DNA of 59,014 nt from Amoebophrya sp. A120. Lineage: Eukaryota > Protista > Dinoflagellata. This document shows, piece after piece, positions 1-56,086 of the stretch (positions are counted from its first letter, which is position 1; each line of letters opens with the position of its first letter). The position numbers were made by a program, and so were the translations under genes. A model generated the notes under the pieces. That model worked only from the letters and a program-made list of their open reading frames with translations, had not been told where the DNA came from and did no database searches. The stretch spans positions 1,458,467 through 1,517,480 of the forward strand of contig CAJINV010000004.1 in NCBI GenBank assembly GCA_905178155.1, read 5' to 3'.

Positions 1-252
1 TATCAAATGTAAAAATGTCTGGGTCTGGAAACTTGTGATGCTGGGCGGCGCATCATGATGAGGCTCCAAATGCTGGCTCAGCATGACAAGTTTCTGAGCT
101 CCTCGGTGTTGCCTATTCCGCATGACAAACTGCGCTTCTGCATCACAGAAAAGCGGAGCTCTTGGGTAACGTGCATGACAGATTTAACAGTCATGCCAGA
201 CAAGCATGACAAACATGAATTCTTCCAGACCCAGACATTTTTACATTTGATA
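1..252. mobile_element. Introner family A (TIR TATCAAATGYAAAAATGTCTGGGTCTGGAA)
   Basis: About 30-bp TIRs; left TSD lies outside the window. Confidence 0.9.
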
Positions 253-3200
253 CGACGACCAGCAGTACCACTACGACCTATGAAATGCAAAAATGTCTGG
301 GTCTGGAAGATTGCAACTTGTCATGGTAAATCTGAATCATGCAAAAATCTGTGTTGCATGAGTGCCAAAAGCTGTACACTTTTGACCAAGTTGAAAGGGA
401 GTTTCTCATGCAGGATAGGCATGGCAGAGACCTCGCAGAGTCTGTCATGCCAAGTCCCGCATTCCAGACCTCATGGGTAATGGAAAATCTGCATGACAAG
501 CCTACACTTTTCCAGACCCAGACACTTTTGCATTTGATACGACCACCACAAGTACTATAACCTCAACCAGCACGATCACGACCACTTCTACTCTAACGAC
601 GACTACAACCACGACGAGTACAACCACTGTCAGTACAACCACGACAACAACCTCGACGTCGACAAGCACGACGACCGTTACAACGACTACAGCCACGACC
701 ACGACAATGACCTCGACAACCACGACCGCCACGACAACCACTACAACCGGAACTTCCACGACCACCACCTTTACTACCACTAGCACGGTAACGACGAGCA
801 GCACAACTACGACGACGTCCACTGTGACTACGACGGTAACCTCCACGACGACAACCGTCACCAGCACGACAATTACCAGTACCAGTACAACTACTTCTAC
901 GAGTAGTACTAGTAGTACAACGACGAGTAGTACAACTAGCACGACGACAGAAACCTCGACAACGACAACGACCTCAACAGTCACAACAACCACAACAGTC
1001 ACGACCTCCACGACGACGACGACGTTTACCACAACCGCTACCACGACGTCCACGGTGGCGGCGATTCTCCAAAAGGTCGTGCCGGAGACTCTGACCGCGA
1101 AGAAGGTGAAGGCACGGGTGACTTTGTCCATGACCCTCCCGGTCGGCACAACCGGGGCGGAGCTCCTGCAGAATCCGGAGATCGTGGGCAGCTTCAAGCA
1201 GGGTTTCAGTTGGCAGTACGAAGTGCCGGTCCGTGACGTGGAGATTGTGTCTTTTGACGTCACGCCGATGCCGGCCTCTGGCGGCCAGGGGACGACTCGT
1301 AGAAGAAGTGTGCGAACAAGGATGTTGACCACATCATATCAAATGTAAAAATGTCTGGGTCTGGAAGGGTTGGAGCTTGTGATGCAAACTCTGGAACACA
1401 CAAAAACTTGTATTGCATGAGCGCCAAAAGCTGTCCATTTCTTGGCACGCAAGTAGGAAGTTTCTCATGCGGGAGAGGCATCATGAGGCGTGCTCAAAAG
1501 CTGTGATGCTTTTGCCTGCATCAGACGCCATTTGCGTGATCCGAAATATGCATGACAAATCCCGCAATCTTCCAGACCCAGACACTTTTACATTTGATAC
1601 ATCAACCGCTAGTACAATTTCTCCGCAGACGAAGAAGATCTTCACAGCATCAACTCTTGAACTTTCCGAAACGGAACAAGAAGAAGTTCTCGACCAACAA
1701 GAAGGGCGCAAGATCAACAATTTGATCGACAGGCGAAGATCATTGCAAGGGGCGTCTTCGCAAATTATGCAGGTGATTTGCACGTACGCGATTTTCACAA
1801 ACGATCCTTATCAAATGCAAATATGTCTGGGTCTGGAAGAGTGTAACTTGTCATGCTACATCTGGATCGTGGAAAAATTTGTGTTGCATGATTACCAAAA
1901 GAGGTCCACTTTTGAACAAGTTTAGAGTCAGTTTCTCATGCAGGAAAGGCATGGTAGAGATCTCTCAGAGCCTGTCATGCTAGGCAGTGCATGCCAGACC
2001 GCGTGGGTCATGGAAAACCTGCATGACAAACTTGCATTCTTCCAGACCCAGACACTTTTCCATTGGATAAGCCTGCAGGGATGGCGACGAAGATGGGGAC
2101 CGCGACGGCCGGGTCCATGATGGGGTTCATGACCACCGCGCTCCAGACGGTGACGTCGTTGCCGGGGCTGTCGTTGTATGAAATGCAAAACTATCGTACT
2201 AGTAGAAATTGCATGACAAATATCCTTAGCATGACAAACGGAATTTGTCATGCTGTTTTAGCTTCGGAGGGAGATTTGTCATGCGTAATTGCGATTACTA
2301 CGAGTGCGATTTTTTTGCACGGGATACGTTGAACGGCGTTCTGGCCATGGTGTCCGCGGACTGCAGTACGGTGTTGGATGAGAAGCGGTGTCCGGACGGG
2401 TTGAAGGACGTGTGTGCGCAGGAGTGCTCCTTCCTGCAGTCCGGGGTCACGGTCGCGGAGCCGATCGGCGGGAATCTCGTTCCGGTGGCCGAACCCGCGG
2501 GGCAGGATATGACTTGCTCAAACGTCACAACCTCAAGCGTTACACTAGAATCTGGAATTTGTCTAGCATGATGGGCACGACAGACTCGCACAGCGTTCCA
2601 GCTTTTGCAATACAAATTTCGCCAGAATGTAGTCGGGTTTGGAGCTCCGGAACTTGTCATGCGCAACCCTATGACAGTTGGCTGGATCATGCTTATCATG
2701 CAAGACAAATCTCAGATTCTATTGTAACGTTTGAGATTGTAACACCTGAGCGGGTTATACAGGAGTCCACCAACGTCGACCCCGATGCGGTCTTGATTAG
2801 TTCTTTAGGCGAGAACGCGGGCCAAGACGGCACAGACGAAAATCTAGACGGTTCTGGGTCGGCGGACACAAATCTGAAAGTGCAAGAAACGCAGGCCGCG
2901 GGGCTGGGATCATCGGACGACGTCGGGGGGGAGTTTTGGGTTTTGGTGCTGATCGTCGCCATTCCGGGCGGGTTGCTGGCACTGTACGGGTTTGATGCGG
3001 CATTGTCCAAGTATAGTAGCTGGTACCGAAAAAACTGTACGGAAAGAAGGAAAAAAGCAGCGTTGCTGCCCAGCTACTGGCTATCGACGTGGTCCGACCG
3101 GGGAGGCTCCTCGTCGGCGGAAGACCGCCGGAGAGCGGCGGCAGGCGCAGCGTCCGGAACTCCCGGTCGGCCGACCGCCAACACCACGCGGGCGCGGCGG

Positions 3201-5585: not shown

Positions 5586-5864
5586 TATCCTGAGTAAAAA
5601 CGTACCCACGCCAGAGTTGTAATGCAGATCTGCAAAGACAGGAAGACTCGTAATGCGCATCCGCATGAGAGCCATTTCCAGTCGTGTTTTGGAATTTGTG
5701 ATGCTGTGAACAGGAAGAGCAGATGAATCTGTGACGCGGCTGCACTTGCTAACCTGCACTACGCTGCATAGTGCAACTTGTCATGCGTGACTCACAAGAC
5801 TCCTAGGTTTGTGTTGCAAAATCCCCATGCTGGCTATGGTGTGGGTACGTTTTTACTCAGGATA
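5586..5864. mobile_element. Family B element (TIR TATCCTGAGTAAAAACGTACCCAC), apparently non-coding location
   Basis: Perfect 24-bp TIR, TSD TGATT/TGATT; reverse complement of the copy at 51766-52044. Confidence 0.92.
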
Positions 5865-12177: not shown

Positions 12178-15100
12178 ATGGGCGACCCATCCGGGCAGGC
12201 GGACGGCAACGCCGAGAAGGAGACGTGGATTCTTGGTTACATCAAGGATCTCATGGACGTGTCCCTTGATGCGAAGAATTTTACGGCGAAGGAGCGACGC
12301 GAGATGGCTGAGGACGCCTGGGAGGACGAGTTTGGCACTGTGAAAATAAACCAGAGCGTTCTAGAGAAGGATCAGAACAAAAATGGCGAAAAAAATAAGA
12401 CGTCGAGAACCTCCTCCGGGAACAAGGAAACGCTTCTCGTCCCTCTCTCTTCGGATGATGAGGGATTTCTTCCAAACGAGATGATGAAAAGTGGCAAAAG
12501 AACTCTGTCGGAAAGAGGAGCCACGTCATCAAAGAAGCAGGTAACCTACCGGCACCTTGAGAAGCTAGACGCGAAGATGAAGGCGAAAGAAGCTTCTGCG
12601 AAAGGGCCCGGTAAAATAAACAGGAGGCAGGACCACGCGGACCTGAACGACTCGATGCTATGGGATCACCAGCATGAGGGGGCGGGTGACTTCCTCTCCT
12701 CCTCGGTAGAAGACGACATTTTAGATCCGTTTTCGCTCGACGACGCGTTTTACTTTCCCACAGGTGCAGCAGCTTCATCTGGTGCTGCCGGTGCGGCTGC
12801 TGCGTCCTCCTCGTCCGTAGCAGGTCCAACATCTTCTGCGAAGGGAAATAAAAGTGCTAATGGTCGTGAAAACGGCGCGTCTGGAGCTGCGGCGGAAATT
12901 TTTGATGTAGACGACATGCTGGACGAGGACGACGATGCGAACGAGCATCCGAACGAGTACTACCTGCTATCAAATGCAAAAATGTCTGGGTCTGGAAGAA
13001 TGCAACTTGTGATGCTGCATTTGGATTCCAGAAAAATCTGTATTGTATGAGTACCAAAAGGAATGTAGTCTTTGCTACGCGGTGACGGCATCTGTCATGC
13101 GGAATATGCATCCAGTTCCAGAAGCTCTCAAAAAGTCTGTGGTGCTAGGGCATGCATCACAGACATCAGGGCTCATGCAAAACGTGCATGACAAGTGTCA
13201 GAATCTTCCAGACCCAGACATTTTTACAGTTGATACCTGCGCACGCTGTACAAGAGCGAGATCGAGAGCGGGCGAATCTGGGAGATTTTAAGTGACTCCG
13301 AGGAAGAAGAAGGGACTACCTCGATGTCGACCAAGATGACGAAAAAGCGAAAGATAGAAGAGGAGGAAACACCTACCGACTTGAACAAGAACACCACAAA
13401 AGCAGGCGGAACAAGGACTTATCCTATGTAAAAACGTCCCCACACCATAGTCAAGATGGGAAGTCTGCAACACAAATCCCCAAGTTTTGGGGGTTCTGCA
13501 TGACAAGTTTCCATCTGCAGTGTAGTACTGGCTGGCAAGGAAAGCCGCATGACAAAGCCATTTTCTCGTCCTGTTTACAGCATTACAAATTTCAAAACAC
13601 GACTGGAAATGCCTCTCATGGAAGGGCGCATTACAAATCTTCCTGTCATTGCACATTTGCATGACAACTCTGGGGTGGGGACGTTTTTACACAGGATAGG
13701 ACTGGTAGTGTGTTCGCGCGCGTGGCGGCGGAGGAGGAGGAGGAGCGGCAGAAGCTGGCGGCCTTGGGGAAGAAGGCACCAAAAAGGAAGAACAACAAGA
13801 AGAAGGCCGCGAACCCGACGTGGTTGTGGCAGGAGGCGGACGTGGCCACAGGGTACGACCACTTTGGCATATTAAATGCAAAAATGTCTGGGTCTGGAAG
13901 ATTGCGAGACTTGTCATGCTTGTCTGGCAGGACCAAAAAGTTTGTGATGCGTGTCCAAGAAGAGACTCTTTTGCCTGTCATGCAAAAACGCAGTTTGTCA
14001 CGCGAAAAACGCAAGCGCAACACAAAGAAGCGCAGACATTTCTCATGCTTGGCTGTGCATTACAGAGCATTCATTATTCCCAACGCAGCATTACAAGTTT
14101 CCAGACCCAGACATTTTTGTAATCCATATGGCAACCAGGAAGACTACGGTGTGACCGAGAAGATCGCGATGGACTTGGATGACACGGCTGTGGAGTCGTT
14201 CAAACTGGAGAACTTCAATGCAGTCGAGGTCGCAGAGAAGGAAACTGCCAAACCGATGACAAGCGGAAATAAACTAGTATCGAACAAGAGCAAGAAGCAG
14301 GGAGGACCACCAGCTGCTGGCGCGGCAAGCCGAAAGGACTCATCGGGTGCTAATTTCGCAGGATCAACAACTACGAGCCGGCACCTGCGAGCGGGCAGTG
14401 AGGATCTCGACGCGGGAAAGCGGCAGGCGTTTGTGCAGTACTGCCTGGGTCGTTCTTGCGCGGCGAGCAGCAGTTCTGGTGTCATCTCTACTGTGCAGCA
14501 AAGCTCGGCGTCTGCGTCGTCGTCAGGAACTACGAGAGGTAAGAAGAAAGCACAAGGACATCAAGCAGAAGCAAGTCACCAATTATCACAAAATACAACA
14601 ACCTCCACACCCGGAAACTCCCTCTACGAGCCGTTGCCGCTGACGTACCTCGCGGGAAAATCGACGGCGCTGCAGAATTTCACCGAGGTTCCGCCAGAAT
14701 CTTTGCAGGCGTATCTGGAAAGCAGCAGCTGCTGCAACGGGTCGCTGGATGTGGACGTGGAGAAAGTTCTGAAGCCGTACGAGGCGGACGCGAATCTGCA
14801 GAACCAGGTCGCACGGGTTCTGTTGGGGGACTTTCGCGAAGACTGCATGTGGGATTTTTCATCGGGCAGTTCAAGTTCTTCTACTTCTGGGAGTTCTGCT
14901 ACTGCAGGAGATTTTAGCGCCGGGGTCGTGAACAAGAAGGGCAAGGCAGCCAGTTCTTCTTCCTCTTCCTCCTCAGCGCTGAACAATCTGAACACAACAA
15001 CCCATGATACATCAAACGACGGCATAAACTCCACAAACCAGCAAATAAACCATGTGCCGGTGATATGCATTGCAAATATGTCTGGGTCTGGAAGATTGCA

Positions 15101-18100
15101 ACTTGTGATGCAAATTTCAGACAACACAAAGATCTGTCATGCATAAACAGCAAATGCGGCCCAGAAATTGGCACCAAAATAGGAGATTTGTCATGCGGAT
15201 TAGGCATGAGGACACCTTCTCAAGACTTGTGATGCTACGGCTTGCATGACAGACCTCCTTGGTAATGCAAGAGCAGCATGACAAACATGCGCACTCATCC
15301 AGACCCAGACATTTTTACAGTTGATAGGTGACCGGTTTTTCGCCCCACGTGCTGTTCAAGGGCATCTTATTGTGAGGAAAAATCCCCCCTCCCCATATCG
15401 AAAAGGTACGTCGCAGAAAATTTGCATTGCTGATTTGCGGCCACAAATCACCTCTGTCTTGCAAGAAGGCAACGCCACAGGCTCCGCCGCATTTATTATG
15501 CAGGCGGTTTGTGATGCTGCTGGGCCTACAGCGCGGACGTTTCTCATGCTGAGAGCCTAGGCCGAAACCTCTCTGCTCAGGCTCGGCATGGGCCGGCAGT
15601 CCTATCCAGCAAGACAAATCCGATTTGTGTACGCAAATCCCGCATCACAAACTTCGTTTTGATGTGGGGAGGGGGGATCTTTCATTTTGATACATCTGTG
15701 AGGGTTTCTACGGGGGGTTCGAGCCGTGTATGCAGTGCAAAAGCATCGTAAGAAGTACTACAAATTGCATCTTGTTCACAATGAAATTTTTCAAGTAGAA
15801 GAAAAGTGGAATTTGGATTTGCAATGTTTTTTACCTTAGGAGGGAGATCGAGATTTGTCATGTTTGAGTGCAATTTTTAGCTACAACAAGCGCGATGGTT
15901 TTTCAATGCATACCGTGGCTGAAGGAGCAAAATTGTGTTCTACCCCGCGTGGCCTGGCGTGTCGTGAAGAACAAGCCGCTGAAGGAATTCGCCAGTGGCT
16001 ACGGAGTTCTGAACAACAGAAGTAGCAGTGCAAGTTTCACAGGTGCGGGGCAGCTGCAAGGAGGTTTACTGCCTCGGGGACACCACCAGGTCAACACCAG
16101 CTATACGCGCTTACTCGACGCAGATCCGGTCACGAAAAAGGCCGGGGCGACGGGGACCGGGAGCAAGATCACGATTCTGGACCCTTGTCGGGATGACAAG
16201 GTGCTCGTCGAAGCGTCCTCTCCTCTGGACGCCGCCCCCGGTGTAGTAAACCCCTCCGCAGGAGGATCCCCGTCGGACTCCGTCTTTGGCGAGCAGTCGG
16301 AACTAGTTTCATCACGGGCAAATAATCTTCACCAGCCTCCGCAGGAGGAAAATGGACAGCCCGCAGATCAAAATAGTGTCAACCCAGCGAACATCAAAAA
16401 AGCTGCTGCCATGAAGAAAAAGCAACCGCCGCAGCGGGCAGGTTCGAAGGGTAGTGCGAACAACACCGATGGAAGTTCTGATCTGCTGCAGAAGCAGCAG
16501 GACTGGCCAAAGACGCAGAAGTCCAGCGCCACGGTATTCGACGCGGCCTCTTTGGTTGCGCAAGACAACAGTGGCAACGCGGCGGCCCCGCAGCCCCGGC
16601 ACTTCACGCAGCACAGCTTTCAGCTGCGGCCGGAGCAGATGCGCGAGTTGCAGTGGATGAAGGAGCAGGAGCAGGAGAACACGAAAAACTACCTGCAACT
16701 GGCGAACGTGGAGTATCAAATGTAAAAGTGTCTGGGTCTGGAAGAATGCAACTTGTGATGCTGCGTCTGCATTATCCAAAAATCTGTATTGCATGAAGAG
16801 CAAACGAGGTCTGGTTTTGGCCACGGCGAGAGGGCATTTTTCATGCGGTAGAGGCATCAGAAAGCCCTCACAAGATCTGTGATGCCAGGGCATGCATCGC
16901 AGACATCAGGAGTCATGCAGAATGTGCATGACAAACCTTGCATCCTTCCAGACCCAGACATTTTTGCATTGGATATGGAGTGGCGCGAGCCGATTCCCAA
17001 CGAGAAGATGGTGTTTCAGTTATCAGAGAAGTACACAAGAACTCCCCCTCTCCCTCACTTGTGATGCAAAATCCCAAATCCAGTTGCTGCCTTGTGGCAC
17101 TGTATGCATTGCAAATTTTGGAACCTCAAGCAGTATTCTCGTCGTGCACGAGCTCCACGCGAGCTGGCGTGCGTACTATTGCTGTTCATGCTATACAAAT
17201 GAGGGGGAGCAGGGGCGGGAGTTGTGCACTCGCATATCAGTCCGCAAGCGATCAGAAGCGTGAGAAAAAGATTGAGGACTTGGAGCAGCTGGTGAGCGCG
17301 AGTGAGAACGCCGTGGCGACGCTGAACCTGTTCAGCGGGGAGACGACCCGCGAGGCGCTGGAGGAGCCGTTGAACGACGTGCTTCGGCTATGCAAGCAAA
17401 AAACTGAGTAAGTGTAAATTTGTGTTGCAGAACATGCAACAGAGTTACACCTGTCATGCCAAACAGCCACGAAGTCCTATTTTCATGCGTGTTTTCCCTT
17501 ACAAGCGACGCATGACAGGTTTTCTCTGTCATGTAGAGCAAATTTGTGATGCTGTCAGCCAAAGACAGTTACACTTACACACTTTTTTTCTGGATGTCGG
17601 CAGTTTTCGCACACCCAGATTGACCGGGACCAGCACAGCAGTCGGTGCGACAGCCTGCGGATTCAGCAGCCACTGCTCTTTCCCACGCACTTCGCCGCCA
17701 GCCGGCAGGTCACGATTGACATGCTGCTGGAGCTGAAGACAAGAACACAGAAGGAGGTGGCGAAAGCGAGGGAAAATCTCGAACATTTTCAGGCGGCGGA
17801 CAAGAAGAAGGAGTTCTTCCACCTGCAGTATTAAAATGAAAAATGCCCCCACCCCACAGGTTGGCAGCATTTGTATTGCAAACCTTTCAAAAAGAAACTA
17901 TTCCCCGTCTTGCATATATCAGCATCACAAATTTTCCATGCTGAAGAGCTCAAATTTGTATTGCAAAGAGCCCAACACCAGCCGGATCTCTTATGCAAAA
18001 GATGCCTTGCGTGCCTAGATTCTGCATTAGAAAGACTCGCAGTCCTTCCATGCAAGACAAACAGTTTTCATTTGGAAACTTTGCATCAGAAACTTTTGCA

Positions 18101-21100
18101 CATTCTGGGGTGGGGGCATTTTTCATTGCAATATGCAAAAAAACTACCCCGCCGCGCTGCAGCAGAACTTGCTGCTGAACAGCACCTCGAAGAGCGGCGG
18201 CAAGCTTCAACTACCCTCCGCCGACGGTGGCGGCGGTGGTACTGCGAGTGGCGCTATCAAGACGGACTTCGTCGAGATGCGGGTGCAGGGGCCGAAGATC
18301 CGGGTGCGCGGCGGGATTCTGAATGACCAACTGGGGTACGGAAAGACGTGTTTGTATCATGAGGAAAAATCCCCCCTCCCCATATCGAAAACGATTTGAG
18401 TACACAAGTCGACTTGTATTGCTAGAAGGCCAAGACCAAGAGATGCAGTTGGGGCCCCGCTTGCCGGCAATTTGTCATGCTGTTTCCCACTTCCAGCTGC
18501 CTCCTGGCATGGTGAAGAGGCGAGGCTTTCCCACGCCACCCAGCACTACACTTCGCATCTTTCTCCTTCTAGCATGAGAAAATGACTTGTGTACACAAAT
18601 CCCGCATCACAGACTTCCAATTTGATAGGGGGGGAAGTTTTTCACTTTGATAGTTTGATGATCGGCCTGATGGACTGGACGCTGAAGCAGCAGTGCCCGA
18701 AGCGCACCGACCTGAAGTTCTGGGGCGAACGGACGGGGTCCCACCGGACCCACCGCGGCACCCTGGTGGTGATGCCGCCCCACCTCCTCGCGCAGTGGTT
18801 CGAGGAGATCACCAGGTTTGTGGGCAACGACTTTGCCGTGATGCAAATCGCGACGCTGAGCGACCTGAAGGCGCGCACCGTCGCGGACATCCTGAACCAC
18901 GACGTGATTCTTTGCAACAGCAAGGTGTTTGACTCCCCGGGCTACAAGCACCGGGTGCAGGAGCTCTGCAAGTACTGCAACACCGACGCGAAGTTCACGT
19001 CCTTCGCGAGGAAGGAGGAAAAGTACGGTGTGGGCAAGGTCTCAGAAATGGATCTCCAGGCCAGTAAAGCGAACGCGTATAATACAACTAGTGGCGTACA
19101 AGCAGAACAAGCGCAATCGCGATCTGTTGTGGGTGGAAATAAGAATGATGGCAACTACGGAAAAATGCCAGCTTTTGGTTCAACAACTTCGCACAACAGC
19201 GGTGCTTCTTCCAGTACAGCCGGCGGCTTGTTTTTTGGCGCAGCAGCTGGTGCCGGAGGAGCATCGGCCTCCGATGCTGGTGCAGTCCCCTCCACCTCCT
19301 CGACGGGAAATAATTTGTTCGCGGACTTCCTCGATAAGCAGGCGAAGCAAGCCACGTCCTCTTCTTCGTCTTCTTCCGCCGAAGAGCAGGATAATTTTCA
19401 CACCGCCGCGACGAACAACACGAGCAAGCAAGCGGTGCACAACCGCAAGCTGAACTGGGGTTTGTCCTCCCTGTGGGAGAACGAGTTCGAGTGCAAGTTC
19501 GCGGACTTACGGGATCTCGCGGACCGCATATCAAATGTAAAAATGTCTGGGTCTGGAAGATTCTGAGATTTGTCATGCAGTTTTTCCAAGCTCCGCCAAG
19601 TCTCGAATGCAGCGCGTAGCATAACAGGTTCTGCAGCCCCTTGGTGATGCCTATTCTGCATGAGAAATGCCCCCTCGGTATGGCTAGAAATGGGGACCTT
19701 TTGCAAGTCGTGCAACACAGATTTTTGTATGATCCGCAACACCCATCACAAGTTCGCATCCTTCCAGACCCAGACATTTTTACATTTGATACCGCATGCA
19801 GCGCTACGATGAGGTCAGCTTCCGGTTTCCAGTTATGACCCGCTCAGACGTTACAATCTCAACTGTTACATTGGAATCTGGATTTTGTGATGCTAGAAGT
19901 GCAACATGATCCAGCCAACTCGCACAGGATTGCGCATGACAAGTTCTGGAGTGCCAAACCGCACTAGAATTATCTGGCGAAATTTGTATTGCGAAAAGCG
20001 CAAGACTCTGTACGTTCCTTATGCTCTTCATGCAAGGCAAATTCCAGATTCTATTGTGACGTTTGAGATTGTAACACTTGAGCAGGTTATACCAGTCTTG
20101 GAGCTCTTCTATTTCCGTCGCGTGGTGGCCGACGAACTGCACGAAGCCGCGGAGTTTGCGCAAGATTTGCAGTCTATCCCACAGAAAAAAGGCGGCACGG
20201 CATATTTGTTATGCAAAAATAAATGCACAGAAAAATCTGCCATGCTTGGCTCCATAGCATGCTGTTTCAGATATGCAATGCAGATTTTTTGTGTATTTAT
20301 TTTTGCATTACAAACATGCCCTGCCAGCTTTTTTCTGTGTGATACAGTCCTTCGACACGAAACTGCCTTCCTCGGAGGCCAACGCGCGGACCGCCGTGCG
20401 AAACTCGAAATTGGACGATCTGCAGAATGTGGTCGCGGCCGTGGGAACTGCTGCAGGTGGAACTGCAGGGGGGTACGCCGCATTGAAATCCAGCTCGCCG
20501 CGCGACGTGGTTTCCTCCTTGTCTTCCTCCGCGCACGCAGCGAGCCTGTACCCGCACACGTACTACTATCAGATGAGGAAAAGTTTGTACGTAGAGTGTA
20601 GTACCTTTTTTTTGAATGAATGCCCCCTACGAAGATAGACCCAGACGCAAGATAGACCAGCGTGAAGATAGACACAAACGCAATCATCTTGCATGCTGTC
20701 GTGTGGCATCACAAAGTTTTTTTTTACACTAACAAAACAATCTTTTTCTCTTCCATAACGACCGACTCGGCCGCGCTCTGATCTGCCTGCAAAAGATCCG
20801 GAGCTCCTACCGCTGGGCCCTGTCCGGCACGCTACCGCTGCAGAACAGGATGGTGCTGAACCAATTCTTGTCGTTTTTCACGTACGGGAAGTCCGTGCTG
20901 GCGCCGGTGCATATCAAATGCAAAAATGTCTGGGTCTGGAAACTTGTGATGCAAGTCCCTCTGTAAGGCGCCGCCAGGCATGACAAGTTTTTTCGTGTTT
21001 CTGTGCTGCGTATTTCGCATGAGAAACTTCGCTTTTGCATGACAGGCAAGAGGGCCTGTTGGTGGCCACTCAATACAGAGTGAAGAGTCATGCCAGACTA

Positions 21101-24100
21101 GCATGACGAATCTCGCAATCTTCCAGACCCAGACATTTTTGCATTTGATAGTGCAGCACAACGAGCAAGTGTTTCGAGATTTCGTGCGGTCCAACACCTT
21201 GGCCAACGTAACAATTCCGAAAGAAGAGAAGGTGGTGGTGGTGCAGCAGTCGAAATACGAGCACGCCATCTACCTGGACTGCGCCCACCAACTGAAGGAT
21301 GACGCGAGCGCCGCGGGCGCCGGGGGCGGGGTGGCCACCAGCAGTATCATCTCGCTCAGCATGAACGAGAAGAAGCAGTTGCAGCAGGTGTCCCGGAAAT
21401 CCAATTCGAAAAAGGAGACGCTGCTAAAACTCTGCTCCCATTTCTTGCGCGACGACCACGGAGAGGGGGATCTGACCAAGAGCGACCAGGGCGAAACCGG
21501 CCGTATTAAGGATCGGTATCAAATGCAAAAATGTCTGGGTCAGGAAGAGTGCCAGGTTTGTCATGCATATTTTCCATGACCCATGATGTCTGTGATGCAT
21601 GCCCAAGCGTCAGAGATTCTGCGAGAGCTCCCTGATGCTCGTACCGCATGAGAAATTCTCTTTCCGCGTAGCAAAAGTGCATCTCTTTTGCCGTTCATGC
21701 AATACAGATCTTACGTAGAGTGCAACTGTAGCATCACAAGTTAAACCCTTCCAGACCCAGACATTTTTACATTTGATAATCGGAAAAAGGACGCGATCGA
21801 AGCGTGTCGGCGGACTATCACAGGTGAAAAAAAACTTCTGTATAAAGAAGTTCCGTGCTGACACTTTTCGCTTTTCCTTTTTGCATAATCGCGAGCATGT
21901 TGATCATGTGCATGACTAGATCCGGTTCGCGTGCGCGATCTGTTGACGAAGAAAATTCGCAGTTGGTGTTTGATGAACTATACGACGCCCTCGCGATGAA
22001 ATACAAAAAGCATTTTTGGGCCTTCTTCAAGAACTTTGTGCAATATGGATGTCAACACAGTGAAGTTTTTTGGCTGGATACAGAAGCTGCAGGACAGCTG
22101 CCGGAAGTTCGAAGCCTGTCTTCGTGGGTACATGATCACCCTGCAGGACACGCGAAACGAAACCAAGCGCGAGGAAATGAAGGACCAGCGCAGAGCCCGG
22201 CTGAAGAAATACTTTTTGGTATTATACCACCACTAGTATTTATTTACTTTTTTCGACAACTACAGGAACACCAGTTTCCCTATCGATTGTGTACGCTGTC
22301 TCTCGTTTGTCTTTGTTTCATTGAATTTCGTGACTGTAGTTTACTTCCGACATGATCTTCCCGCTCGGGGTATCTGCCTCCTGCAGACCCTTTCCAGAAC
22401 CGACATGAAATTTATTTGCGCAAAACACACAGCGGTACGGCGAAAGTGAGGAGGTGAAAACTGACGACGGACGGACGGTCCGGAAGCAGGCGCAGCCGGA
22501 GAAGGGCTCGGCGGAGGAGATCATGGCCACGGAGATTGTTAACGCGGCCAAGGATGACCCCAAGCACTTGCGGACCGACCGAGACGTAAACACGCTCGAA
22601 AAATTCCAAGACGCGGTGAACCACTACGAGGCTATCGAAAAGGAGGCCTTCGCCAAACTCCAGCGCGCCGTGCGTTATCCAAACGCAAAAGGTCTTCTTC
22701 TTCGTGTAGTTGTCTTATGGTGATCTTCGCGATGTGCAGCTTGCATGACAAACGTTCGCCGCTAAGAGCGAAATAATTTGTGATGCGGTCTGTCAACCTA
22801 GAGACGACTTTTGTGAAGGTGCATAGTTCCGACAAAATGTTTTTTGACGAGATGATGAAGGTGATGGAGAAGGACCGCTTCGAATGCGAAGCCTGCATGT
22901 ATGGAGTTCTCAAATGTTACATTTTCAACTGTATACACGAATTTATGATACAAACGCACAATCAGAATCGGCACGAGCAAGCTGCTTCGCATGACAAATT
23001 CTCGAAGCGCTAAACAGGCTCAGAATCTGCGCCAAACTTGTAATGCAACTGGCGCAATCTTCCCCTTTTCAGTTCTGTCATTCTTGCATCACAAGTTCAT
23101 GCAACAGTTGAGAATGTAACGGTTGAGAACGCCATAGCATGGACGAAGACTGCACGGAGGCCGGAATGTGGCCGTGCTCGCACTTCCTCTGCTACGACTG
23201 CGCCGTATGCATTGCAAATGTATCTGGGGCTGGTTTTGTGATGCGAAATCTGAAGGACAACAAGAACTGTAAAAGTGCACCATGGATGTTGAGTATTACC
23301 ACGGTGCTGGTCGTCCAACTTTTCTGTCGTGCTGGAAGCCAGTTTTTCGGTCGTTTTGCAAATAAGTATGCAATAACGAGCCTCGTAAAATTTCTGATGC
23401 TTTTAAGTATGCCGTGCAAGTGCAAGTGGCTACTCTGCTATGCGAGCGTCGCGAGCAACACAAATTTCCACACCTCCAGGGGTACTTATTTCCGATGTAT
23501 ACCTTGTGCAGCAGTGCAATCGGCAACAGGGCAATGCCCACGGCCCGACGTGCCCGAAGAGGTGTCCGGGGCACGTAAAGGCGAGCGAACTGTGCCGGCT
23601 AACGCTCGGGCGCAACGAGGCCGAAGAGTTGCTCGACAAGCTAGAATATGCATTGCAAATATGTCTGGGTCCGGAAAGAATGGGATTTGTGATGCTACCT
23701 TTGGACTCTACATAAAATCTGTATTGCATGAACAGCACCATAAGAGGCGCAATCTGTGCTACGCGGAGAGGGCATTTCTCATGCGGTATGAGCATCAGAA
23801 AGCCCTCGCAGAATCTCTGATGCTAGGGCATGCGTCACAGATCTCATGGGTCATGGAAAATCTGCATGACAAACTTCTGCATTCTTCCAGACCCAGACAT
23901 TTTTGCATTTGATATGGAAGACGACTCCAGTATCATCGGGAAGTACGGCTCAAAACTGAAGCAGATCGTGCAACTGCTAAAAACGAGCGGCGACGTGACA
24001 ACATCGTCCGGTGGAGGTTTTAATACAACAACCGGAGCTGCAACTGCAACGAATCCGAACGGAGCTGCTGCTGCTTCTTCTGTTGCGCCAGTAGCTCTTG

Positions 24101-25730: not shown

Positions 25731-26844
25731 AAACTCTCAACCACGAGCGTTGTGAGGGCGACTGCCGGGGAGGGGAGACGAAACCCGAGACGCGGCAGGA
25801 TGCTTCGACAGGCGTACAGTTTTACTTTTATCACAGAAGAAGTAGTAAGTACGATATTGACTTCTTCGACTGCCAGGGAGTCGTATCGACATGCAAGGAG
25901 CGAATTTCTGTTTTTGCAGCCATGTTGAAGTTGACACACTACATGATGGTGAAGCCAAGGACTTTGGTGGAAACACAACAAGGAGTGAACCTCTACAATC
26001 AGTCATGAATGATTCCGATTTCGAACTTTCATTTGTTTTTTTGCGCGAGCAAATTGATTGCCTGCTTCCCCCCGGAAGATCCTCGTCCAACCAAAAGTAG
26101 TGCAACCGTTTTTTAGCAACGAACTGTGCGTCGTCTCCAGCTGCTGAGCTTGTGGTGAGGTGTTGAAGCTGTGTTTACTCAAAACCAGCTACACCCACAA
26201 GAAGTGACGAGAAAATGATCTTCGAGGCAGCGACAAAAACTATTACTCAGTCATCGATCTCCTTCCTTGGCACGACTCATACATCACAACTACGTGAGCA
26301 TCAAAAATAAACTGTCGTGACAACTGGCTTTCTGCTCGTCCGTCGATGGCGTATTCGTGCAGAAATGATACTTGAACAGATTCCGTGTAGTGTGTACAAC
26401 ACCTCTGCTCGCTCCTCGTCGCACTTCGACGTTCACCAAAATCGTTTCGTAAACAACGGATTTAACAAAGTGATCGTACTGGAGCTGTCATTTCGTTCGG
26501 ACCCATCGTCGCACAACTCCGGGCAAGATTTTGACCACGTCGTTTCGATTCTAGAACCGAAGGTCATTGATGAAAGTGGTCGTCTCCGTATATGGATTGT
26601 CATACCTTACCGAAGCCAAATCATTTCATTTTTCATCCATTAATTCCATGTCAACGACAGGAATTTTCGTTTTTTTCCCCGGGGAAATAAACCAAACACC
26701 ACGTCGTCGACCTCTGTGCCTCGGTGTACAGTGTAGTTCGAAGAAAAAGCTCAAAACTAGAAACAACCTAATTAGACCAAGCAAGCCTTGTTCGCTGCTT
26801 TGTTGTACTCTGGAGGAATAAACGAGGACAAAAAACCCAAAATC

Positions 26845-48287: not shown

Positions 48288-51200
48288 ATGAGCTCGCGAG
48301 GAGGTACCGTGTCAGGAGGTGTTGGGGAAGCTGGTAAGGGCACTTCTGGCGCGGGTGGGAGTAATTACACCGCCCCAACGGGGCCAGCAGACGCGACCAC
48401 GACGATGCCAGCGATTGTCGTGCCGTTGCAGACCGTTGCAGTTATCGGGAGGGGGAAACAACGAGGAGCATAACTACAACCCATTGTCTTCAACTACACT
48501 TTTTCGTGTGAGTAAGCGCATGGATTTATTTTTTTGCATTCCAAAAAGTTTTTGTTTTGCAAAAATTTTTGCTTCCGTTTTCCTCAAGACAAACACAAGT
48601 ATACTTTCACCTTCCCGGTGATTGCTTTCCCGCGCTGGAAGCGTAGCCACGACAGATTAATAGAAAGTGACTATTGTAAAGACGATCACTGCGGGAATTG
48701 CACTTGGGTGCTTTAGAAATTTGTTTTTCCCCCATGATAACTGCAACCGACCACCAGCAGGATCAGCATTCCAGTGCGCAACATCATGCAGTCGGTTGCT
48801 CTGGTGCTGAAGCAGACAGGGCTACCCCTTCATCCTTCGCTTCCAACAGGACACCAACCGCGTCCTCAAACCCTGCCGCCAGCTCCTCTGCGTCTGCGAG
48901 AAGCAGTGGGAAGGCCACGAAGAGCAAGAGCAAAACGAAAACGGGGGCGAACAAGGTTTCTGTCAGCGCTTCGGAGGTGGTCGTTTTGGACGAGCCTTTA
49001 CGGCAGTCGGAACAAGCAGGTGGTGCGTCGTCCTCGAGGAGTGGCATTGCAACAGGAGGAGGACACCGCAATAAAGCTGCAGCCGGCAGCACCAGCACGA
49101 CGGGGGCACCGCAACAGCACAGTACTAGTGGCAGCAACAACCAGCTGGTTCCTGTGGCAGACCAGCAACAGCTGGAACTACACGCGACGCGCAGCAGTTC
49201 GTCCAGTTCGGGCGGCGCGCGGGGCAAGCCGAGCTCCTCATCATCAGCTTCCTCATCTACCAACGCAGCCGCGCAAATGAATTACCAGCAGTTGGTATGA
49301 TCGTGTGGGAAACATAAAGTGTGTCAATGCCCAGACAGTGCAAGAACATGTTATGGTTTATTGTTCGGACTGGCAGCATGTTGGCAAGTTCATTCTGCAT
49401 GATGACAGAGAAATATTAAGCCTGGCCTGTCTAGCTAGTAGAGTCAAAACGGATGATGTGAAAAAAGAGGACTTCAACATGGCTGTCCGGTATGACAAGT
49501 GTGAAGATGCTGTTGCATGATCATGCTAGTTCGCATTGCAACACCCTTTTTTTCGTTCGGACACTTGGAAACGTTGCACCAGCTTCGCATGGATCAGGAC
49601 ATTTTAGCGAGAGGATTGACCGAACTCGAGGACCAGTTGCACCACCGACTTTCCGATCTTGCTGAAGAAACGGAGCGGAACGCGAACTACCACAAGGCTC
49701 TGGAGAAAGCGGTGCAGCAGTTTGGGCAGCGGCTCCACCAGAGCAGTACTTCTATTGCGAACGGTAGTTGTAGTACTTCTTCTTCGGCGACAGCACAGCA
49801 TCAGTTGGACTACAGCAGCAAGCATGCCCAACACCTGGAGCACCTGGAGCAAATGTGCCAACAAACCGTGGCCGACCAGGACCATTTGCACGCGCAGATG
49901 CAACAGTTTGCCGACGAACAAGACCGCAAGTACGACCAGCTGTCCCTGCAGCTACAGCACGTCGTGCAGGAGCAGCGGCAGCTGCAGGAGCAGCTCGCGG
50001 CGGCGGTACTTGCGGCGCAAGGAGCTCCGGCGGCGGTGCACCAGAACCGCGACCTCGGGGACGTTGACCAAAAGTTTTTGGGGACGAGCAGCGGCTCCTC
50101 CGCAGAGATAAAAGAGAAAGAAGCACACCTAGTACTACGCTCGGAGGAGCCCGAGCAGGAAAGTAGAAATCAAGGAGAGCATGAAGCAGCAGCTGCTAGT
50201 ACTATCGGCCACGAGAAGCGTATTGTGGATCTGGAAAAGCAAGTAGCCGCGATGTCGGAACTCTGCCAAACGGTACTGCAAACGATGTCGCTATCAACTG
50301 TAAAAATGTCTGGGTCTGGAAGAATTCATGTCTGTCATGCTTGTCTGGCATGACTCTTAAATCTGTCATGCACGTTACCCAAGAGCTCCGTTTTTCTGTG
50401 ATGCAGAGCCGCAGTTTGTCATGCAGAATAGGCAACACCTAGGAGCTCAGAAACTTGTCATGCTGAGCCAGTATTCGTAGCCTCATCATGAGACGCCACC
50501 CAGCATCACAAGTTTCCAGACCCAGACATTTTTATTTTTGATAATCGCAGCAGATGCGCGATTTGCAGGGCAAGTGGAAGAAGCGCGACCAGACGTTTGA
50601 CCTGCGGCTACATATGCATTGCAAATATAATTTATGTCTGGAGGTGGAGATTTGTGATGCTGAACTGTGGATGATGAAAACACTATCGTGATCGTGAATT
50701 ATGCAGACAAGCATGACAAGTTTGCAGAACGTTTTCTCCTACGCAGTCCGCATGAGATGACACTGCGTTTTCCTATGGCGACTTTTGTCGGTCCTGCAAT
50801 ACAGATTTCACACCAAAAATGTACGACCAGCATTTTTACAAGTTCCAACTTTATTCCAGACCCAGACATATTGTTTGCATTTGATGCTGTAGGAGTTCGC
50901 GCAAAAGGTCGAAACCATAGAGACCACGGTAGCGACGTCTTCGGACGTTCTTTTCCGCCAAGGCGATATTAACACTCTCGGTAAACAACAGCCACGAGGA
51001 CCCGGTGAAGAGCCAGATCGCTCCGCGGAATTGGTAAGGCCAGGGTCATCATCCGCTGCTGCGGCTGCTTCAAGTAAAAACACCGAGCAGGTCACCATGG
51101 TTTCTCCTTCCTCGGACCTACAGAAGGTAGAACACGGGTTGCGGGATGAGCTCTCGCACGTTCATGCGGACGTGCAGGAAAAAATTCAGCGGTTGCAGCA

Positions 51201-54200
51201 GCACATGAACAAGCTGGACCAGAATAGCCGCAGCTCCCTGCTGCAGCTGAGTGAGATGTGCGACCAGAGCATTCGTCGGGCCGTGGAAAAAGTGGTGGCC
51301 ACCGAAGTGGAGCCGTGGCGCAAGCAGCTCGGAGAGAAAACCCAATTCGATCTAGACCGTTTTGGGGACCTGGAGTGCCGTGTGCTGCAGGTAGAAAAGT
51401 ACGCAAGGAAAAAACTACTGCATCAGTGTAAGTACGTTGGTCTGTGTTCTTGCAGAGGACGATGCATAACGCCTACACTCAGCATGCTTGATGTGCGCCG
51501 TCACAGTCAGGCTAAGGCTATTTGATTTTCCTATGTTTTTTTTCTCTTTTTTTCACACGCTCACCACTCATGACAGGTCACGCGAAACAAGACATTTGTG
51601 ATGCTGCTGATCCAAAAAAATCAAAAAAGCTTTGTATTGCTTCCGCTAAGACAGTTTTTTTTTCCGGTATGAAAACAAAGTTACGTGCACTGGCGCCGTT
51701 GGCAAGACCGACGTGGAGGCGAGCACAACTAGAGAGGCAGCTGCCAGCACCTCCACAAGGGCAACTATCCTGAGTAAAAACGTACCCACACCAGAGTCAG
51801 GATGGGGATTTTGCAACACAAGCCTAAGAGTTTTGTGAGTCACGCATGACAAGTTGCACTCTGCAGTGTAGTGCAGGTTAGCAAGTGCAGCCGCATCACA
51901 GATTCATCTGCTCATCCTGTTCACAGCATCACAAACTCCAAAACACGACTGGAATTGGCTCTCATGGGGATGCGCATTACAAGTCTTCCTGTCTTTGCAA
52001 ATCTGGATTACAACTCTGGTGTGGGTACGTTTTTACTCAGGATAGCAACTTCACTTCTGCAAGATCAACTCGGCGACTTGGCGAAGCGCTTCCAGCGCCT
52101 GGAAAGGTAGAGAAAATTCGCTAGCTCAGGAACTGGGCGAGCTGCTGGCTTTTTATTGCAGAGTGCTTGCGTCGTGTACATGGTTCTATGTATCATTTTG
52201 AGCATTTTTGTTGCGCAACCTTTTCTGTTTGTTACATTTTTTCAAAACAAGTCCACACAAAAAAAAATCACGCAGCTCCGTGGGCGATTTTCGGTCCTCC
52301 ATGACGGAACCCAGACTAGCCAGATTGGAAGCCGTCCTGCTGCACGGTGGCGGAGCTACAGAAGTGTCGGCCGCATCAGGACCCGTGGGCAGAAAAGATA
52401 AAAGCCTCGAGGAGCGCCGGCCAGGAGGTGGTGTTCCAAGCTCACCCGAAGACCAAGAAGATCTCCCTGCTTGTGCCAGCAGCCCGCCTGGTGCGGGTCG
52501 TGGGGCGACCGCGTCTGTAGCAGACACAACCGGTGGAGGTCACCAACGCCAGAGAGATGTTGAACAAGCTGGCGCTACATCACCGAGCGGCGGTTGTTCA
52601 TCCGCTTCGTCTTTCTCTGTTAAGAGCGGTCGGATTTGGGAGAACAAGCTGAGTCGCTTGGAGCACCGCTTGGTCGCTATTGCAAGGAAAAATCTTCCCT
52701 CCCGGGGTCCCCATGTTGAAAGCGCATTCCTCCGAAAATTTGTCATGGTGAAGATTTGTGACCACAAATTGCGTCTGGCTTGCAAGAAGGCAAGAGCAGA
52801 AAGTCCGCCGCGTTTTTATTTTATGCAGGCGGTTTGTGAAGATGCTGTTGCGGCCTACAGACAAGACGTCTAGCATGCTAAGTGCCTCCGTCAAGTCATT
52901 CCGTTCCAGGCACTGCAGCTGCCTGCAATCCTTTACTGCAAGACACAGCTGCGTTGTGTACCCAAATTCCGCGCCACAAACATTTCTATTTTGATTATGG
53001 GGAGGGGGGACTTTTCATTTTGATGGTCGCGCGTCTGACGGAACTGGAGACCAAATGCGCAGCGTTTTTGGAGAGCGACGACTTCGGGTCTCCGCAAGTG
53101 GAAGATGGTGTAATCGACCAGCAGACTTGTTCCAGAACTGGTTTGAGAATGGGACCAACTTCCACAAATAATGCCGGGGGGTCGCAGCACAGCAAGGTGG
53201 TCAGCCGCCGCGGGCTCGAGCAGCGACTCTCCGCCGTTGAGCAGACGGCCTATGCATTGCAAATATGTCTGGGTCTTCTGGAAACTCGTGATGCAAGTGC
53301 TCGATGGATATGCAAACAAAGCTGCGCGCTGATGTTGCAATACGTGGCCAGGCATTGCAAGTACTTACTAAAGTAGTTTTCGAGCTACTGCTACGTTTAG
53401 CGTGTTCCTCATAGCAAGCTACCTTTTTGCATGCCAGGCAAGATGTTGAGGATGTTCTAGCGCATAAGCATCACAGAATTCCGAACATATGCCAGATGAG
53501 CATAAAGAAAAAGAATAGTCATTTCTTTTCAATAATCTTCCAGATCCAGACATGTTTGAAATCCATACGGCGACGGAGGCGACCAAACGGGCGGAAGCGC
53601 GGCTGCAGGAGAAGGTGCAGACTATGCATGGCAAATGTGTCCTCCTCTGCGTTTGGATATCCGTTTATTCGTTCATTTCTGTGTGGCGACCAGATCTGTA
53701 TTATGTGTTTATACGTGTGCATGAGCAGGAATTATCGCGAGTTATGTTGTCACTCTGCAACGAGCCAGCTTCTTTTTTGTTTTTCATGCGATTATTTACG
53801 AATTGAACTTATATATGCGGTGCAGCAACTACAAAACGCAGTTCTGATGTGGTGCAAAACTCAGCGAATGGAAATGCTTCGCTGTACTATGTTCTGTCCA
53901 AGCCAGCACTATGTTCTGTCCAAGCCAAGACATGTTTGCAGTGGATACAGACTATCAAATGTAAAAATGTCTGGGTCTGGAAGAATGCAACTTGTGACGC
54001 TGCATTTGGATTCCAGAAAAATCTGTGTTGCATGAGTACCAGATGGAATGTAATTTTTGCTACGCGGAGAGGGCATTTGTCATGCGGAATAGGCATCAAG
54101 AAGCTCTCAAAAAATCTGCGATGCTAGGGCATGCATCACAGACATCAGGGCTCATGCAAAACGTGCGTGACAAGTGTCAGAATCTTCCAGACCCAGACAT

Positions 54201-56086
54201 TTTTGCAATGGATACAGACTGCTCTAACGCAAAAGGCCGAGGAGCTCGAAGCAAGAACCAGGGAGGGCCTACAGTACATTCATAGTTTTTTGCGCATGAA
54301 CAAGTAAGAGCTAGACATGAAAGTGAACCAAAACTACAAAATTGTAGAATTGAACGCTTGATGACAAAGCAAGGTGGTACTTGTTGTTTTCTCACCGCTC
54401 AACATCCTCTTCAAATGTGTTTTCGTTCTATATCTTTAGGCACTTAGAGGACGAGTTGCGCGTGTTGCTGGGCTATGAATTGCAAATGTGTCTGGGTCTG
54501 GAAGGATGCCAGATTTGTCGTGCAGGTTTTCCATGACCCATGAGGCCTGGTATGTAAGACATAGCATGACAGATTCTGTGAGTGTTCTATCATGCCTATC
54601 CTGCATGAGAAAAAACCGCCTCTCGATTGGCTCAAAAGTGGACAGCTTTTGGTAATCACGCAACACAGAATCTTACATGATTCCGTGATTAGCATGACAA
54701 CTTGCAGCTTTGTTCCAGACCCAGACTTTTTTGCATTTGATATGGGCGAAAGCGTGCAGGCCGACCTGGAGCGGAGAACTGTGGCATTGATCAGCCAAGC
54801 GGAGCGTCGCATCCTCGAACAGCAGGAAAAGGCACTGGAAGCGACGTTCAAGAAGGCTGAAAATTATAGTTTGGCAACAACAAAAATGAGCGCGCCAAGT
54901 CCGGGAGAAGTGGGGACAGCGGCGACAGAAATGGTCGTCCAACAGGAGGTATCAAATGCAAAAATGTCTGGGTCTGGGAGATTGCGAGATTTGTCATGCT
55001 AGTCTGGCATGACTCTGAGCTCTGTGTTGCATGGCCGCGAAGAGCTCCTCCCCCCTGTCATGCAAAAACGCAGTTTGTCATGCGGAATACGCAACTCAGA
55101 ACCATGAAAAAAACTTGTCATGCTTGGCAGCGCATCATAGTGAGTTCACTATTCCTTTTCTTGCATCACAAGTTTCCAGACCCAGACATATTTGCAATGC
55201 ATAGGAGGAGTTGCAGCGTGACGTGCGCAGTATGGAAACGCGGCTCTATCACAGGGAGAAAAGCATTTTTACATACAGCTGCTAGCATGGGATTGATTTT
55301 GCATGATAGGAGATACAAACCTGCTTCTGGATTTATTGTGTGCCGGTCTATTATAGTTTAAGCATATGATTATCCCAACCTGCTGTAGTTGTACTGTGGG
55401 GCGCTTTTCTCTCTGGGATAGGCTCGAGGATTTGGTCTTGCGCCTGTCCGCGCTGGAAACGCAGGCGATTGCGAGGATAAGCGACTCGGGCATCGCAACT
55501 GGTGGTTCTTTTGCTGCTCCTGCAGCGCCAGAAGTGGATCACGACGCTATGGTGAGGAAAAATCCCCTCTCCCCATAGATAATATTGAAAATTGATGCTT
55601 CTGCAAATCAGTGCTTCTTATTTGTGGTCACAAATCCTGTGTCTGTCTTGATGGAAGAGAGCAAATCCAAAGGGTGCGCCCCATGTTCCATGCGATCTGT
55701 AATGCTTTTGCGCCTCCAACTGCACTCCAGGCTCAGGCCACTGCTATACGAAGAGCCTACACGACGACGACCAAAACGCCCCAACAAAGCAGGCTCAGTG
55801 AGTCTCCGCCTGCAGAAGCTCCTCACTGGTGCGCGTGTACAACAAATCGCGCTGCACAGATTTCGCGTTGACTATGAGCCAGGGGCTGGATTTTTTTATA
55901 TTTCCATAGCGTTCCTTGCGAGCAAAGTCCTCGCTCTTTCCGGAAATGCAATTCCGCCGCCGGCAGTGCGCGAGGTGGCTTCGCGAGTGCAGCAGGACGT
56001 TCTCGCAGAGGTGCAGCTGGTTTTGGGCGACCAGATTCGGCAGCACAGCCGGGACCAGGCAACGCGGGTGGTGCACACACGCATGG
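48288..56086 (+). CDS. Large coiled-coil/low-complexity hypothetical protein, 3'-partial or disrupted; 15 introners plus GT-AG introns 52107-52275 and 54274-54439
   Basis: Heptad-rich exons (LTELEDQLHHRLSDLAEE, LEQRLSAVEQTA) join in frame from ATG 48288 to the interrupted element at 56087. Confidence 0.75.
48443..48739. mobile_element. Degenerate introner
   Basis: TATCGGGAGGGGGAAAC...TTTTTCCCCCATGATA; frame restored. Confidence 0.7.
49296..49563. mobile_element. Degenerate introner
   Basis: TSD GTTGG/CTTGG. Confidence 0.65.
50292..50543. mobile_element. Introner family A (reverse complement of 1-252)
   Basis: TSD GTCGC/ATCGC. Confidence 0.92.
50613..50886. mobile_element. Introner family A (diverged)
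   Basis: Flanks CTACA/CTGTA. Confidence 0.8.
51400..51671. mobile_element. Introner family I (old)
   Basis: Flanks AAAAG/AAAAC, frame restored. Confidence 0.65.
51766..52044. mobile_element. Introner family B
   Basis: Perfect TIR, TSD GCAAC/GCAAC. Confidence 0.93.
52678..53025. mobile_element. Introner family D
   Basis: TSD GTCGC/GTCGC. Confidence 0.87.
53251..53567. mobile_element. Introner family A (diverged)
   Basis: TSD CGGCC/CGGCG. Confidence 0.82.
53623..53947. mobile_element. Old introner, first of a tandem pair
   Basis: TATGCATGGCAAATGTGTC...GACATGTTTGCAGTGGATA, TSD CAGAC/CAGAC. Confidence 0.83.
53953..54214. mobile_element. Young family A introner, second of the tandem pair
   Basis: TSD CAGAC/CAGAC. 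Confidence 0.92.
54474..54742. mobile_element. Introner family A
   Basis: TSD TGGGC/TGGGC. Confidence 0.92.
54950..55203. mobile_element. Introner family A
   Basis: TSD GGAGG/GGAGG. Confidence 0.92.
55247..55420. mobile_element. Introner, family F-like
   Basis: TATCACAGGGAGAAAAGC...GCTTTTCTCTCTGGGATA, TSD GGCTC/GGCTC. Confidence 0.85.
55548..55908. mobile_element. Introner family D (diverged)
   Basis: Flanks diverged; HDA|LASK in frame. Confidence 0.78.

Follow-up and report, generated by a model that had tools for sequence, protein, structure and literature searches.

Orientation and cut register of introner-like elements missing from Amoebophrya A120 transcripts

How can a gene be interrupted by short inserts that lie in either orientation and still give a continuous coding sequence, and what does their removal tell about the enzyme involved? 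This question is raised by a stretch of 59,014 nucleotides (nt) from Amoebophrya sp. A120 (contig CAJINV010000004.1; hereafter the window), eukaryotic DNA in which genes of the + strand are broken up by short repeats. A sequence-only reading had proposed that copies of one subfamily sit in opposite orientations within these genes, that they are removed whichever way they lie and that this points to a non-standard mechanism with its signal in the symmetric ends. Comparison with transcript contigs confirmed that the inserts are absent to the base, in both orientations. A single cut register, placed asymmetrically with respect to the element, is allowed by every junction with a defined position.

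Self-comparison of the window, together with an end search, revealed one 30-nt terminal inverted repeat (TIR) shared by 22 complete elements. A wider, hand-curated search of the window gave 58 elements of about 150-360 nt, namely 8 families of 2-20 members and 18 singletons; the weak candidates 6907-7352 and 33274-33511 were removed by hand before counting, and elements 1, 17021, 20567, 21816 and 55548, and later 51400, were put in by hand. Nearly all 58 start with TAT, end with ATA and have a 5-nt direct repeat on either side. The profile of 94 arms gives T 0.97, A 0.96 and T 0.98, with A at positions 11-13 at 0.84, 0.84 and 0.95, the first two positions being partly imposed by the detector. 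Four elements with ATG instead of the terminal ATA are still removed (17389-17596, 50613-50886, 51400-51671 and 52678-53025). As short, non-coding, multi-copy sequences with a TIR and a target site duplication (TSD), these inserts correspond to miniature inverted-repeat transposable elements.

The first and last ~30-35 nt of an element are identical whichever way it is oriented. A subterminal 9-nt motif points inward from both ends, and 122 of its 133 occurrences in the window fall inside elements, which make up 26% of the bases. End-to-end folding is predicted for all 20 copies of the main family; among the first 30 bases, 22-30 are paired, and the two strands have similar energies. Pairing is uneven along the stem: among 239 elements, Watson-Crick pairs occur in 227-237 at positions 1-3 and 11-13 but in only 119, 130 and 78 at positions 4, 5 and 7, and this poor pairing looks like the conservation of a motif.

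The members of the main family are connected by 114 links with 0 orientation conflicts and fall into 15 copies of the majority and 5 of the minority orientation. Two of the smaller families occur in both orientations (4:1 and 2:1) and five in a single one (4:0 and four times 2:0). The opposite-orientation pairs proposed from the sequence were examined on their interiors, trimmed of 32 nt of terminal repeat. Identity between 1-252 and 50292-50543 is 93% reversed and 56% forward (local scores 312 vs 22), and that between 21517-21778 and 23647-23914 is 81% and 55% (259.5 vs 30). Likewise, 20912-21150 matches 54950-55203 at 75% reversed and 49% forward (194.5 vs 30), and 13870-14128 at 68% and 53% (146.5 vs 32.5). 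Since 400 shuffles gave a mean local score of 18.5 and a maximum of 34, all four pairs stand far above chance, and the proposal of one subfamily in opposite orientations is borne out. Two further pairs were observed: 17829-18133 and 25085-25389 are 98% identical and lie in one gene in one orientation, which suggests recent local copying, and 5586-5864, outside any identified coding frame, has 94% identity to the reverse of 51766-52044.

To follow the elements in transcripts, the stretches 12100-26000 and 49900-56300 were compared with RNA-like contig sets (X3, X5 and X6) and a DNA-like set (X1). Contigs of this kind show neither splicing efficiency nor minor isoforms nor precursor RNA; raw RNA runs gave 8 and 2 matching reads, all only partly on 12100-26000. 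For 49900-56300, where the table of joints is dominated by repeat-to-repeat joins of the DNA set, contig pieces and length sums were used. The two stretches contain 37 complete catalogued elements, of which 36 are absent from the RNA-like contigs together with 5 nt, on the evidence of 14 listed joints, 2 adjacent pieces and 20 length sums; the remaining one (22900) is covered only by a length sum shared with two unplaced introns. Thirteen of the 20 main-family copies lie in the compared stretches, and all 13 (9 in the majority orientation, 4 in the minority) are removed with exactly one copy of the 5-nt duplication. Joints in X3 and X5 skip exactly the element plus 5 nt at 19529, 20912 and 21517 in the minority orientation and at 23647 and 25451 in the majority orientation. 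The features of the first stretch are as follows.

12178..25760, + strand: SNF2/RAD5-like host gene with 25 catalogued elements; 1806 stop-free codons after removal of 18.
13870..14128, + strand: main-family element, majority orientation; inferred intron 13869-14132 (AT..GC); length sum 821 = 273+284+264.
19529..19791, + strand: main-family element, minority orientation; inferred intron 19528-19795 (AT..GC); 268-nt joint in X3 and X5.
20912..21150, + strand: main-family element, minority orientation; inferred intron 20911-21154 (AT..GC); 244-nt joint in X3 and X5.
21517..21778, + strand: main-family element, minority orientation; inferred intron 21516-21782 (GT..CG); 267-nt joint in X3 and X5; predicted end-to-end stem, z -6.45.
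23647..23914, + strand: main-family element, majority orientation; inferred intron 23646-23918 (AT..GA); 273-nt joint in X3 and X5; the junction retains base 2 of the left repeat; predicted stem, z -6.42.
25451..25713, + strand: main-family element, majority orientation; 268-nt joint in X3 and X5.

The SNF2/RAD5-like gene has a Helicase_C match above the cut-off and an SNF2 match below it. Its nearest protein homolog is from Amoebophrya AT5.2: the joined frame aligns across junctions with an SNF2/RING protein (P0001) at 29-50% identity, and the alignment spans both the 21517 and the 23647 junction. One RNA-like contig of X5, 3888 nt long and spanning 18138-24391, lacks both of these elements, which places them in a single SNF2 gene as the sequence-only reading had it. 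Removal of element plus 5 nt from 18 elements leaves the 1806 stop-free codons, so the copies do sit inside + strand genes, and the spliced length, 4983, equals that of the contig. When any one of 16 of the 18 elements is kept, the protein is truncated before codon 1790; keeping 20175 delays the stop, and keeping 13870-14128 leaves the frame open, yet this element too is absent from the contig. Excision of the elements alone, with no repeat copy, was also considered and was rejected, as it gives 26 stops in frame. Two further introns, 369 nt together, lie between 22210 and 22890; a search for their exact position within this interval gave many chance GT-AG pairs and no placement.

The features of the second stretch are these.

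49620..56086, + strand: second host frame, containing 12 complete elements; without a stop over 2682 nt once these are taken out; pieces in X3, X5 and X6.
50292..50543, + strand: main-family element, majority orientation; inferred intron 50291-50547 (CT..CG); 536 nt absent = 257+279 (X3).
53953..54214, + strand: main-family element, majority orientation; in tandem with 53623-53947, with one 5-nt repeat in common; length sum in X3.
54474..54742, + strand: main-family element, minority orientation; inferred intron 54473-54746 (CT..GG); length sum in X3.
54950..55203, + strand: main-family element, majority orientation; inferred intron 54949-55207, GT..AG by chance; 438 nt absent = 259+179.
55548..55908, + strand: element of another family, its duplication decayed to 1/5 matches; intron 55547-55912.

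Here the exon piece that follows 54474..54742 begins at 54743 in X3, X5 and X6. At 55548..55908 the pieces of the same three sets end at 55546 and start at 55913, with 0 nt of junction homology and no ambiguity of register. Two length sums were each fitted with an extra intron (166 or 169 nt) taken from the residual, both of them GT-AG; with the inferred GT-AG introns 52107-52275 and 54274-54439 the length sums of this frame are close to 0. The tandem at 53618-54219 carries three identical copies of the 5-nt repeat, one of them in common, and both of its elements are absent from the RNA-like contigs; at the inferred register the exon between them has zero length, so that removal would take two back-to-back steps or a single 597-nt intron. 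DNA-like contigs of X1 cross whole elements at 50840-51791, 52020-53273 and 55180-56110 at an exon-like depth of 42-46, and another extends into 50292..50543. Transcript pieces end at 56086, with their continuation in sequence other than that listed, before an element with a left arm only (56087-57846), whose interior ends near 56234 and is followed by a 569-codon frame with no Pfam match; this is possibly a long nested insertion with its right arm past the window end.

The remaining main-family copies listed here lie outside the compared stretches.

1..252, no strand assigned: main-family element, minority orientation; at the window edge, with no upstream flank; 30-nt perfect inverted repeat.
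279-539, 1337-1599 and 1809-2069, + strand: main-family elements, majority orientation, in a Thr-rich gene.
37501-37763, 40918-41182 and 42142-42399, + strand: main-family elements, majority orientation.

The Thr-rich gene (279..2069) gives 922 stop-free codons after removal of six elements plus 5 nt. Removal in both orientations, as claimed from the sequence, thus holds for five of the six named copies in RNA-like contigs, 1-252 being outside the stretches compared. Elsewhere in the window, a 2165-codon open frame at 27308-33805 with a reverse transcriptase domain, resembling a long interspersed nuclear element (LINE), is free of TAT...ATA elements. A long imperfect inverted repeat, seen by eye at 34960-35330 downstream of this LINE-like frame, is unlike them, and satellite-like arrays of short repeats occur at 58440-58890 and 34747-34900, one with internal palindromes.

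Where exactly are the transcripts joined? When the two copies of a duplication differ in some bases, the transcript reveals which copy's base is kept. All 19 junctions with a defined position allow a single register (k=4); 10 of them are informative, and the probability of such agreement is about 0.007 for a uniform and independent register. In the joined exons, the first four bases come from the left copy and the fifth from the right one; the cuts accordingly lie 1 nt upstream of the 5' arm and 4 nt downstream of the 3' arm, and the introns have the form N-T-A-T...A-T-A-NNNN. Seven junctions rule out the mirror register; were the register tied to the element, with even orientations, this result would have a chance of 0.008. 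The orientation of these seven is known for one (23647) and weakly for 50613 (scores 57.5 vs 27). Removal is not symmetric: the cut falls beyond the stem by 1 nt on its 5' side and by 4 nt on its 3' side.

At this register, the 5' dinucleotides of 57 window elements are CT (17), GT (17), AT (13) and TT (10), and 15 different 3' dinucleotides occur. Only two of the 57 are GT-AG, one of them being 54950; outside the window the proportion is 9/188, with 7.0 expected by chance. Even at any register, GT/GC..AG pairs are found in 6 of 57 window elements and 17 of 188 outside. Hence, in the window and in the outside loci, canonical splice sites are neither carried by the elements nor co-opted from the duplication.

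To count orientations more widely, a metagenome collection was scanned over 10 of its 64 parts. It yielded 182 loci that carry the core motif. They all belong to a single assembly (JACKZZ01), and their elements reach 95% identity with the window copies; about 790 stored stretches with the motif are estimated for the collection. The end pattern had 0 matches in viral contigs. The JACKZZ01 loci hold 272 distinct complete elements with a median length of 262 nt, and the duplication is evident in them, with identity of 0.90-0.94 at offsets -5..-1 and 0.17-0.31 elsewhere. The host strand was assigned by a coding model, which, checked on 56 window elements, gave the correct strand for 50 and the wrong one for 1 and left 5 undecided. 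Main-family copies at the outside loci are distributed 70:49 between the two orientations (p=0.066), with another 49 left undecided; stricter cut-offs give 45:27 and 32:16, and pooling with the window gives 85:54 (p=0.011). The other families give 18:17. Neither orientation is rare, and the bias, a mild one, may stem from insertion or selection. Removal of the element plus 5 nt gives the best coding score in 48/66 and 58/82 elements of the two orientations, a partly circular result as strands were called with that same join. A codon-usage test for the exonic repeat copy at these loci gave 18/36 and had no power.

What do these results imply for the mechanism? That the signal resides in the symmetric ends and that the introns are non-standard both stand, whereas orientation independence is no proof of a non-standard mechanism. 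Because inverted repeats give both orientations identical ends, it cannot separate the spliceosome from another enzyme: a donor or branch signal lying within the terminal repeat would be presented equally either way. Non-standard splicing follows instead from the lack of GT-AG.

The reading that we favour, and consider evenly poised between right and wrong, is that an adapted spliceosome, guided by the symmetric ends and not by GT-AG, removes miniature DNA-transposon-like elements from pre-mRNA. An element would insert in either orientation; both its ends would bear TAT, 7 variable bases and AAA plus an inward TTGT-N-ATGC-like motif, and these ends could pair. A factor bound to the ends or to the stem would set the 5' cut 1 nt upstream of the first T, such that the intron start N-U-A would resemble a G-U-A donor with a free first base, and the 3' cut would be set by distance, 4 nt past the last A. 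Together the two offsets amount to the 5 nt of the duplication, so that the original coding sequence would be restored. The chemistry would be carried out by U2/U5/U6 with a putative branch point.

The constant +2 U and +3 A count for the spliceosome and match the two inferred canonical donors of the window (GTAC and GTAG). The first T also shows weak polar conservation, which counts in the same sense: changes affect this T in 1 element and the A that pairs with it in 8 (0 and 4 of 58 in the window, 1 and 4 of 215 outside; p=0.039). The poor pairing at stem positions 4, 5 and 7 is a further point for the spliceosome. The published splice types agree with this register: the nine predominant types of A120 all have T at +2, and those of strain A25 begin with TT (Table S4 of PMC7789003). 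According to the same paper, A120 retains U2, U4, U5 and U6 and lacks only 6 of the 89 spliceosomal proteins, and U1 snRNA was not found, while the Karlodinium strain, which has GT-AG introns, possesses U1 (PMC12005148).

Several observations weigh against an adapted spliceosome. The first T and its partner A differ little in conservation: a U-G wobble survives in 6 of the 8 changes, and p is 0.125 for the window taken by itself. For G at +1 there is only a weak trend, 69/188 (p=0.047 against flanks, p=0.30 against other repeat bases), and for terminal AG likewise, 19/188 (p=0.084). The donor would be buried within the predicted stem of 22-30 bp, and a branch consensus common to the families was not identified. 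Binding of a transposase may account for the conservation of the motif, and bias of the read aligner may have shaped the splice types of Table S4. In addition, the RNA-like contigs come from one study with two samples, their RNA status being a tool's guess (no listed holder is recorded as RNA, which speaks neither for nor against it), and all host genes here are on the + strand, so that transcript polarity is inseparable from that of the chromosome.

Some of these points fit a spliceosome-independent cut-and-ligate reaction of the SOS or euglenid type, in which the paired ends would be recognised, cut 1 nt and 4 nt from the stem and joined by an RtcB-type or other RNA ligase, a possibility that we rate somewhat short of even. 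It accords with the buried donor and the lack of an identified shared branch motif, with the essentially free junction dinucleotides and with the predicted end-to-end folds of similar energy on both strands. In SOS splicing the trigger is inverted-repeat pairing and GU-AG is seldom used (PMC12779559), and the nonconventional introns of euglenids are TIR-bounded and released as circles (PMC11282704). On the other hand, SOS splicing is imprecise and leaves indels (PMC12779559), while here one register fits 19 of 19 junctions; contigs drop rare variants, though, so that minor imprecision would be hidden. U at +2 is retained, and stem mismatches on the transcribed strand are even, 174 G-U vs 176 A-C in 239 elements, which gives no sign of selection on RNA pairing in the pooled set or in the window alone (55 vs 42, p=0.22), inherited mismatches weakening this test. 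A still more specific form, in which A120-type cells would possess a precise, base-exact counterpart of SOS splicing that counts off 1 nt and 4 nt at the base of every TAT...ATA hairpin, is rated slightly lower.

Two other explanations would dispense with splicing altogether. The elements could be excised from the DNA of transcribed cells or of a transcribed stage, as are the internal eliminated sequences of ciliates, so that RNA never contains them. The inverted repeats do begin with TA, the loss is precise and contigs cannot reveal precursor RNA, but DNA-like contigs run through whole elements at exon-like depth (X1 may, however, be the window's own source, and 298 further joints stand beyond the 15 listed) and the kept repeat bases run in one direction in 10 of 10 informative junctions; we therefore find this very unlikely. 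A hairpin between short direct repeats is also the classic substrate of template switching by reverse transcriptase, which could skip the elements as an artefact. Yet the register of the skips is unchanged where homology at the junction amounts to no more than 0, 1 or 2 nt (55548, 50613, 20567, 21816 and 23206), 16 of the 18 elements taken out of the SNF2/RAD5-like frame would each truncate the protein if kept, and the joined frame aligns with the AT5.2 protein across junctions, making such an artefact hardly credible.

The register is of practical use, since it yields the intron ends needed for a search for lariats or end chemistry and allows a rule-based correction of gene models. It also explains how the insertion of such an element at any point of an exon can leave the protein unaltered. 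If the spliceosome-independent pathway were true, it would turn tens of thousands of insertions, in any orientation and at any target, into harmless introns. Either outcome is of interest, be it a spliceosome that needs neither G+1 nor AG or a second precise route of nuclear splicing.

How do these elements compare with known systems? Micromonas pusilla and Aureococcus anophagefferens introners are also TIR+TSD elements that become introns, with one duplication copy removed in many families, and they insert in both orientations with biases (PMC10228655, PMC9860276). Both-orientation insertion was noted for the spliceosomal introners of Huff 2016 (reviewed in PMC10228655), and the method of Gozashti 2022 allows for opposite-orientation copies (PMC9860276). 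These introners, however, carry or co-opt canonical splice sites, whereas here element and duplication supply no GT-AG. In SOS splicing, described in C. elegans and human cells, DNA transposons leave the mRNA near paired inverted-repeat ends without GU-AG; the predicted folds supply such paired TIRs here, but SOS removal is often out of frame and that of our elements is base-exact in contig consensus (PMC12779559, a paper whose available text does not mention dinoflagellates, Amoebophrya or introners). Euglenid nonconventional introns and the introns of Fritillaria borealis share TIR/TSD and non-canonical ends, the former having their ends joined by pairing and the latter using an adapted U2 spliceosome (PMC11282704). 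As reported there, the euglenid introns have CAG/CTG at +4..6 and -8..-6 and those of Fritillaria AG-AC and AG-AT, while the introns of the window have an unconstrained 3' dinucleotide and no fixed bases but +2 U, +3 A and +4 U. As to factors, SOS splicing depends on AKAP17A, CAAP1 and RTCB.

The closest match is to the published introner elements of Amoebophrya A120, and the window elements belong to this already known system, in an organism that removes more than 60% of its introns without GT-AG. Farhat 2021 (PMC7789003) described TAT + 7 + AAA inverted repeats, direct repeats of 3-5 nt and hairpins, counted 29,850 repeated introns in A120 and found putative transposases only in A25. Our elements have the TAT, the 7 variable bases and at least three A, a 5-nt direct repeat at the boundaries, repeated families with lengths near 240 nt (the median outside being slightly higher), predicted hairpins, RNA-supported removal without GT-AG and several copies per gene. 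The splice position relative to the hairpin is described there as variable or unknown (legends of Fig. 3 and S23), its Figures S19-S25 may have a bearing on the register, and in its main and supplement text 'orientation' refers only to genes. Gozashti 2025, in its available text, treats A120 introners and not their splicing orientation, and the literature searched, which left most subscription papers out of reach, held no report of a fixed register or of orientation counts. Removal in both orientations, the 1/4 register and the mild orientation bias are thus the additions made here to the A120 system.

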